This document shows positions 34,471 to 34,547 of a stretch of DNA of 64,000 nucleotides, in pieces. The stretch lies in the NCBI RefSeq assembly GCF_055900595.2, contig NZ_CM148325.1; one strand, 5' to 3'. The notes under the pieces are model-generated. The model was not told the DNA's origin, ran no database searches, and worked only from the letters and a program-made list of their open reading frames with translations. Both the position numbers and the translations under genes were made by a program. How positions within the stretch are numbered: position 1 is the stretch's first letter; the number at the start of each line of letters is the position of its first letter.

Positions 34471-34547
34471 GAGATACGGCTAATAACCGTATCTCTTGAC
34501 AGAGTGAGTATATGCACATAAATTAATCATACGGTTGATAGCCGTAT
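34471..34547 (+). promoter_or_regulatory. Candidate promoter and operator of the toxin-antitoxin operon
   Basis: Two copies of the palindrome ATACGG-N7-CCGTAT (about 34474-34492 and 34529-34547, centres ~55 bp apart) bracket a sigma70-like promoter (TTGACA at 34496-34501, 17-nt spacer, TAAATT at 34519-34524). Confidence 0.6.

Follow-up and report, generated by a model that had tools for sequence, protein, structure and literature searches.

Among the modules that pair an RHH antitoxin with a GNAT toxin, ataRT of E. coli O157:H7 was reportedly described by Jurenas et al. and by Yashiro et al. in 2019, its structures being those of PDB entries 6AJM and 6GTS. Reviews describe AtaR alone as a weak binder of its operator, and the AtaT-AtaR2-AtaR2-AtaT hexamer as the tightly binding form and the repressor. 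For kacAT of Klebsiella pneumoniae, the DNA in the KacA4KacT2 co-crystal (5ZGN) is AAATGTACGGTTATTAACCGTACATGA, and a single W-shaped KacT-KacA2-KacA2-KacT hexamer occupies each palindrome, with one RHH dimer on each arm; Arg12 of KacA contacts the outer G, and Arg8 and Asp10 contact C-G-G (Qian et al. 2019, PMC6698736). This palindrome spans the kacAT transcription start and is strongly bent by KacAT (PMC6698736). In Salmonella enterica, EMSA points to two sites in the tacAT promoter, -81 to -46 and -46 to -6, with one-site and two-site shifted species, and TacA needs TacT for high-affinity DNA binding (VanDrisse et al. 2017, PMC5449658).

The ItaT toxin of E. coli has been treated in PMC6125619 and PMC7367177. 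A 172-bp fragment upstream of itaRT from E. coli HS, given as '-183 to -11', conferred ~40-fold promoter activity, and this reporter was repressed to background by ItaR together with ItaT, either wild type or catalytically dead, while ItaR alone was without effect (Wilcox et al. 2018, PMC6125619). The text of that paper leaves the sites of repression undefined, as it uses neither the words operator, palindrome and inverted repeat nor EMSA and footprint, and no later paper in the literature searched defines the operator sites of itaRT. ItaRT autorepression is already published; new here, within the literature searched, is a mapped pair of candidate ItaRT operators.

The window, the whole 64,000-nucleotide stretch analysed here, belongs to an E. 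coli chromosome (contig NZ_CM148325.1 of assembly GCF_055900595.2) and has the gene order ampG-cyoABCDE-[two small genes-TPR pseudogene]-yajR, with cyoE ending at 34416. The two small genes have the make-up of a GNAT-RHH operon, with a DUF1778/TacA RHH antitoxin gene upstream and an overlapping GNAT toxin gene downstream (Table 1). The toxin matches PDB 7BYY over residues 1-180 (E=1.3e-115), a level reached by no other PDB entry, and GNAT Pfam domains were found in it. The antitoxin matches Pfam PF08681 (TacA1/DUF1778; 1.3e-17), carries the RefSeq annotation TacA family antitoxin, and among PDB sequences is matched by KacA (5ZGN_A, E=3.5e-11) and AtaR (E=8.6e-9) in phmmer searches; NCBIfam profiles gave only sub-threshold, uninformative matches for all three proteins searched. 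An AF2 monomer of ItaR, of moderate confidence (pLDDT 72), has helices at 26-39 and 43-80 that correspond to KacA helices A and B shifted by +11, and the dimer-dependent strand is not formed in it, as expected for a monomer. We have here the ItaR-ItaT module that Wilcox et al. described (2018, PMC6125619); 1367-1368 of 5426 complete E. coli genomes carry it beside cyoE. Convergent with itaT is a Sel1/TPR-repeat ORF (35683-36429, - strand), and in genomes identical over this region the RefSeq annotation has a longer TPR gene in its place, classed as a pseudogene and interrupted by an internal stop. Together, itaRT and the TPR ORF make up an insert of ~2.4 kb between cyoE and yajR, found in roughly a quarter of the complete E. 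coli genomes.

Table 1. Features of the itaRT control region and operon, in window coordinates.
Feature	Position	Strand	Description	Basis
Intrinsic terminator of cyoE	34429-34458	+	Perfect 13-bp stem ATAAAAAAGGTGC / GCACCTTTTTTAT	Inverted-repeat search
Operator O1 (predicted)	34474-34492		ATACGG-CTAATAA-CCGTAT; core TACGG-N7-CCGTA at 34475-34491	Sequence and pattern search
-35 hexamer	34496-34501	+	TTGACA	Promoter scan; conserved in 16/16 paired loci
-10 hexamer	34519-34524	+	TAAATT, 17 nt past the -35 hexamer	Promoter scan and conservation
Operator O2 (predicted)	34529-34547		ATACGG-TTGATAG-CCGTAT; core at 34530-34546	Sequence and pattern search
5' leader	34548-34600	+	53 nt; ribosome-binding site AAGAGG at 34590-34595	
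itaR	34601-34912	+	103-aa RHH antitoxin, TacA/DUF1778 family; ATG at 34601	
itaT	34896-35438	+	180-aa GNAT toxin; 17-nt overlap with itaR	

Upstream of itaR lie two palindromes, O1 (ATACGGCTAATAACCGTAT) and O2 (ATACGGTTGATAGCCGTAT), both read directly and recovered by pattern search. The original prediction had placed two copies of ATACGG-N7-CCGTAT about 55 bp apart, one just upstream of a TTGACA -35 box and the other over the predicted transcription start, and in all of this it was right. The pattern has exactly two matches in the window, also with one mismatch permitted, against 0.14 expected, and only 1/100 shuffles gave two. Both sites have precisely the TACGG arms and 7-nt gap of the KacA/AtaR-type operators. 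O2 begins 5 nt past the -10 hexamer and spans the predicted start, and so overlaps the start region as those operators do; O1 does not fit this position over the -10 or start, since it sits upstream of the -35 hexamer, 4 nt away as counted from its core, centred at about -48 from the predicted start. In the window allele the arms of O1 stretch to 10 bp (AGAGATACGG / CCGTATCTCT, 34470-34496; inverted-repeat search).

The promoter between the two sites, TTGACA-17-TAAATT, matches the consensus at 10/12 positions, a match which by itself is at chance level (2 found versus 2.2 expected in 1.4 kb); we take the itaRT promoter as real because it is conserved across species. Transcription is predicted from the sequence to start near A34531, ~7 nt past the -10 hexamer and within the left arm of O2. 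The cyoE terminator delimits the itaRT control region on its upstream side and should keep cyo transcription from running into it; with an A-run at one end of its stem and a T-run at the opposite end, it could act in both directions. The loop of this terminator also holds a lone TACGG (34442-34446), 33 bp upstream of O1, which is probably due to chance because it is absent from Pseudocitrobacter. Scanning 34350-34700 against Rfam gave nothing above the gathering score, and weak sRNA-like matches overlap the cyoE terminator. If the numbering of the published reporter fragment is taken from the start codon, this fragment would correspond to 34418-34590 and would hold O1, the promoter and O2, that is, both sites.

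ItaR orthologues were taken from plasmids and from one genome per species (21 loci for the latter, 60-86% identity). Paired TACGG-N7-CCGTA palindromes occur in 16 ItaR-clade loci from about 12 genera (Escherichia, Citrobacter, Pseudocitrobacter, Rahnella (4), Serratia (2), Edaphovirga, Phytobacter, Buttiauxella, Trabulsiella, Chimaeribacter and Kluyvera), and all 16 have the same layout: O1, 4-6 nt, TTGAC[N], 17 nt, TAnnnT, 4-10 nt, O2. These four elements alone are conserved, and the sequence between and around them is not. Over the window and the collected loci (153.7 kb), the core has 45 exact matches where ~0.15 are expected, and every one of the 45 lies upstream of an antitoxin gene; given these expectations for the window and for the collection, a chance origin of O1 and O2 was rejected. 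Plainly observed, therefore, is that the sites exist, that they are non-random, that they share the crystallographic operator core of a homologous antitoxin, and that besides the -35 and -10 hexamers they are the sole elements conserved across genera.

Within E. coli, the window represents a minority promoter allele: among 1368 genomes only 17 reach >=99% identity to it, the others standing at ~95.7% (34460-34600 compared with L034, L035 and L036). The commonest allele differs from the window at 6/141 positions, all outside the TACGG/CCGTA cores, and lacks the 10-bp-arm extension of O1, which is specific to the window allele; in a minor allele, that of strain 980-2, the left arm of O2 reads CACGG through a T-to-C change. 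ItaR-clade loci with a long leader (170-230 nt from O2 to itaR) contain, between the operators and itaR, an ORF of 16-22 codons with its own GGAG-type ribosome-binding site (L001 1111-1161; L003 1008-1076; L006 1391-1444; L008 1392-1445; L014 1361-1426). The encoded peptides, for example MKFTANVFNLNRFRCIF and MRNQSKALNFSRFIKLS, are weakly alike and may be leader peptides or chance ORFs; the 53-nt itaR leader of the window has no such ORF of 16-22 codons.

The two sites are not kept to the same extent in the ItaR clade, where an O1-equivalent site is present in 24/25 loci and O1 together with O2 in 16/25. Eight Xenorhabdus loci (L015, L017, L019-L024) have O1 only, with the same -35 geometry, and Superficieibacter (L025 1393-1443) has O2 only, behind TTGACG-17-TACTCT and within an extended palindrome of 35 bp, so that each operator can exist without the other. 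In each of the eight AtaR/KacA-type loci, ataRT of E. coli O157:H7 among them, a single palindrome with the TACGG-N7-CCGTA core follows directly on the -10 hexamer, which is the O2 position, and because these have the O2 equivalent only, O1 is an additional, -35-adjacent site typical of the ItaR clade. It could be argued from all these single-site loci, and from the retention of O2 alone in Superficieibacter, that only O2 functions, as in kacAT and ataRT, and that O1 is a duplicated relic or a minor decoy. We consider this very unlikely, as O1 is the more widely kept site in the ItaR clade and the sole site in the eight Xenorhabdus loci, no locus with O1 departs from its TACGG/CCGTA core, and its distance to the -35 hexamer is held at 4-6 nt; a relic would not keep both core and distance in this manner. 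One ItaR homologue of 56% identity, on a Klebsiella pneumoniae IncFIA plasmid (L004, 320-1144), has no TACGG-N7-CCGTA within 420 bp upstream. Its beta-strand reads R-V-E-L-R and a copy of IS903B is nearby, so its promoter may have been replaced, or it may belong to a subgroup with a different operator; since the motif is missing upstream, this locus was set aside as an informant on the recognition code.

The paired motif was also used to scan 2.9 million viral contigs (IMG/VR), which gave 12 paired sites, 8 of them directly upstream of itaR-itaT orthologues. The paired motif is thus specific enough to find itaRT-type operons straight from DNA (8/12). The other four (L038, L044, L046, L049) consist of repeat arrays or of identical direct repeats, their spacers are G+C-rich and no ItaR/ItaT or AtaR/AtaT match lies nearby, for which reasons they were rejected as toxin-antitoxin operators. 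Direct reading of L038 (6260-6430) and L044 (915-1010) shows iteron-like arrays of CTACGGAG/CTCCGTAG repeats. L049 (8812-8933) has a 15-bp tandem array, and in L046 (1370-1437) a G+C-rich sequence (TACGGCCTTGGCCCGTA) occurs in two identical copies at a distance of 51 bp. On a Citrobacter freundii plasmid (L001), an itaRT orthologue with its operator pair adjoins a gene annotated as 'baseplate protein'; together with the eight orthologues with operator pairs on contigs of the viral collection (among L039-L048), this indicates that itaRT may travel on prophages or phage-plasmids besides the cyoE-yajR island.

Palindromes of this kind could also act as RNA hairpins, be it as terminator, attenuator or 5' stabiliser, or they could be sites of an unrelated host factor. 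In RNA folding, O1 reaches -13.9 kcal/mol (z = -7.0) and O2 -7.6 kcal/mol (z = -3.3), O2 would sit at the 5' end of the transcript, and its minus strand was caught by a terminator-like scan. This explanation appears extremely improbable all the same: O1 lies upstream of the -35 hexamer and thus outside the itaRT transcript, where a canonical cyoE terminator already precedes it, and neither palindrome has the features of a terminator or structured RNA, there being no T-run on the + strand at either site, no compensatory changes and no Rfam family at threshold. Instead, the TACGG/CCGTA arms are invariant in 70/70 half-sites, the signature of sequence-specific recognition by a protein. The motif moreover moves with the antitoxin gene through unrelated chromosomal, plasmid and phage contexts, which makes it most likely that the binding protein is encoded in cis.

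Several features of the antitoxin fit this role. In the phmmer alignment, ItaR Arg19, Glu21 and Lys23 fall on KacA Arg8, Asp10 and Arg12, and Arg19 is invariant across a 26-sequence alignment of the family. The clade has the beta-strand R-V/I-E-L-K and the half-site R-TACGG-C-T (outer base A in 39 and G in 31; inner C in 55/70 and T in 67/70), compared with the strand R-I/L-D/E-L-R and the half-site T-G-TACGG of the AtaR/KacA type, in which the outer G is found in 16/16 and the inner bases are unconserved. In the window, the outer base is A in place of G (GTACGG), and the strand carries Arg19/Glu21/Lys23 instead of Arg8/Asp10/Arg12. If Arg12 reads the outer G, as in 5ZGN (PMC6698736), this G would be expected to become variable where Lys replaces Arg, as it does here, and this joint variation of protein and site supports ItaR as the reader of O1 and O2. 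Judged from these alignments, the ItaR sites are a related but distinct recognition variant in which the core CGG and Arg19 are conserved; the contacts of ItaR may differ in detail from those of KacA because Lys and Glu replace Arg12 and Asp10. The comparison also suggests that ItaR modules and AtaR/KacA-type modules may not cross-regulate.

Compared with the described systems, itaRT has much in common with kacAT, namely a homologous RHH antitoxin with an aligned R-x-D/E-x-R/K beta-strand, the TACGG-N7-CCGTA core with an A/T-rich 7-nt spacer, a palindrome that overlaps the start like O2, and a toxin-antitoxin complex as the high-affinity repressor (Qian et al. 2019, PMC6698736). However, kacAT has a single palindrome with the outer base fixed as G (TGTACGG), whereas in itaRT another palindrome precedes the -35 hexamer, the outer base is a purine (A here), the inner C-T is kept and Lys stands in the place of Arg12, and in our alignment ItaR is only ~35% identical to AtaR/KacA-type antitoxins. 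The ataRT module is of the same GNAT-RHH kind and from the same species, and has a GTACGG-N7-CCGTAC palindrome just past the -10 hexamer (L032); it differs in having this single palindrome upstream of ataR, in its genomic site (livJ/panM versus cyoE/yajR for itaRT) and in the tRNA specificity of its toxin. Loci of the AtaRT type are carried by 1855 E. coli genomes, as against 1368 for itaRT. The tacAT module shares the family, the two promoter sites, as judged from their published positions, and binding by the complex of TacA and TacT, although its sites lie less far apart (both within 75 bp upstream of the start codon) and TacT acetylates TacA and thereby alters site occupancy, while ItaT is reported not to acetylate ItaR. 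Since tacAT already has one, a two-site promoter is not new for the GNAT-RHH family. The weak binding of AtaR alone matches the absence of repression by ItaR alone, and the need of AtaR and TacA for their toxins in tight binding offers a parallel to it.

Taken together, we put the probability at roughly 85% that O1 and O2 are the operators of itaRT, where an ItaRT complex on each palindrome would occlude the promoter and the two sites would act as separable modules. By analogy with KacAT and AtaRT, one ItaT-ItaR2-ItaR2-ItaT heterohexamer would occupy each 17-19-bp palindrome; at each TACGG arm, one ItaR dimer of the RHH fold would place its beta-sheet in the major groove, and the two dimers would be held by the toxins in the geometry that fits both arms. 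At O1, reaching the first base of the -35 hexamer, the complex would block this hexamer and the UP-element region, and at O2 (about -2 to +17) it would block from the edge of the -10 hexamer across the start site, so that both complexes together would exclude RNA polymerase and repress itaRT. We infer the physical binding to the bases of O1 and O2, the single hexamer per palindrome, the start position and the mode of occlusion, with the ItaR4ItaT2 stoichiometry on one palindrome drawn by analogy from 5ZGN and the AtaRT-DNA structures.

The spacing of the operators bears on whether they might instead form a strictly cooperative unit, in which the two complexes touch through looping, bending or toxin-toxin bridging and occupancy is sigmoidal and dependent on phase. 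Both sites do co-occur in 16/25 ItaR-clade and 8 viral loci, KacAT strongly bends its operator, GNAT toxins can dimerise, the complexes of AtaRT and KacAT are remodelled when toxin is in excess, and both one-site and two-site shifted species were seen on the two-site promoter of Salmonella TacAT. The distance from O1 to O2 (start to start) is 55 bp or 5.2 helical turns in the window, close to the roughly five turns first proposed, but it is not fixed among the relatives: eight of the 16 paired loci have 57 bp, three have 55, and single loci have 54, 56, 58, 60 and 61 (5.1-5.8 turns), and in the eight viral loci it is 55-60 bp. The modal 57 bp corresponds to ~5.4 turns, which places the sites on nearly opposite faces, and no face is preferred. 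A phased pair would have a constant spacing of integral turns and both sites always together, and neither is found, as lineages with O1 only or O2 only exist and 8/8 AtaR/KacA-type loci are single-site. What is held constant is how far each site lies from the hexamer next to it, and footprints of ~27 bp would leave ~28 bp of DNA between the complexes. We regard strict cooperation between the sites as unlikely.

Probably, then, O1 and O2 work as separable modules, O1 tied to the -35 hexamer and O2 to the -10 hexamer. The cooperation that matters would, by analogy, probably take place within one palindrome, between two RHH dimers held by two toxins, and would not be needed between palindromes; the closest single-operator relatives indicate that one site can suffice. 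Of the cooperative autorepression by an RHH complex proposed at the outset, the part that stands is that of operators of an RHH-antitoxin/GNAT-toxin operon bracketing its promoter, in keeping with the KacAT core, the beta-strand residues, the footprint over genera and the published repression (PMC6125619), while the cooperativity and the five-turn phasing find no support.

Beyond this, we offer as a tentative and rather doubtful extension that the ItaR clade has an operator code of its own (outer purine, inner C-T, Lys23) which, with the extra -35-adjacent operator, might make itaRT transcriptionally independent of the AtaR/KacA-type modules common in E. coli and allow occlusion of the promoter at two points. 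If true, a few changes of residues and bases would define non-cross-reacting pairs of repressor and operator among paralogous toxin-antitoxin systems. More speculatively still, the toxins on two bound complexes might interact, and the pair might sense the ratio of toxin to antitoxin.

In conclusion, this study provides base-level candidate operators for ItaRT, whose autorepression was published without a mapped binding place in the searchable literature, and it extends the TACGG-N7-CCGTA operator of the KacAT and AtaRT structures to a clade of only ~35% identity. The understanding of the family is unchanged by this annotation-level result, which gives a well-characterised family a conserved pair of probable operators and a recognition variant specific to one clade. 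The protein and DNA positions that change together could explain how related toxin-antitoxin systems in one cell avoid cross-regulation.
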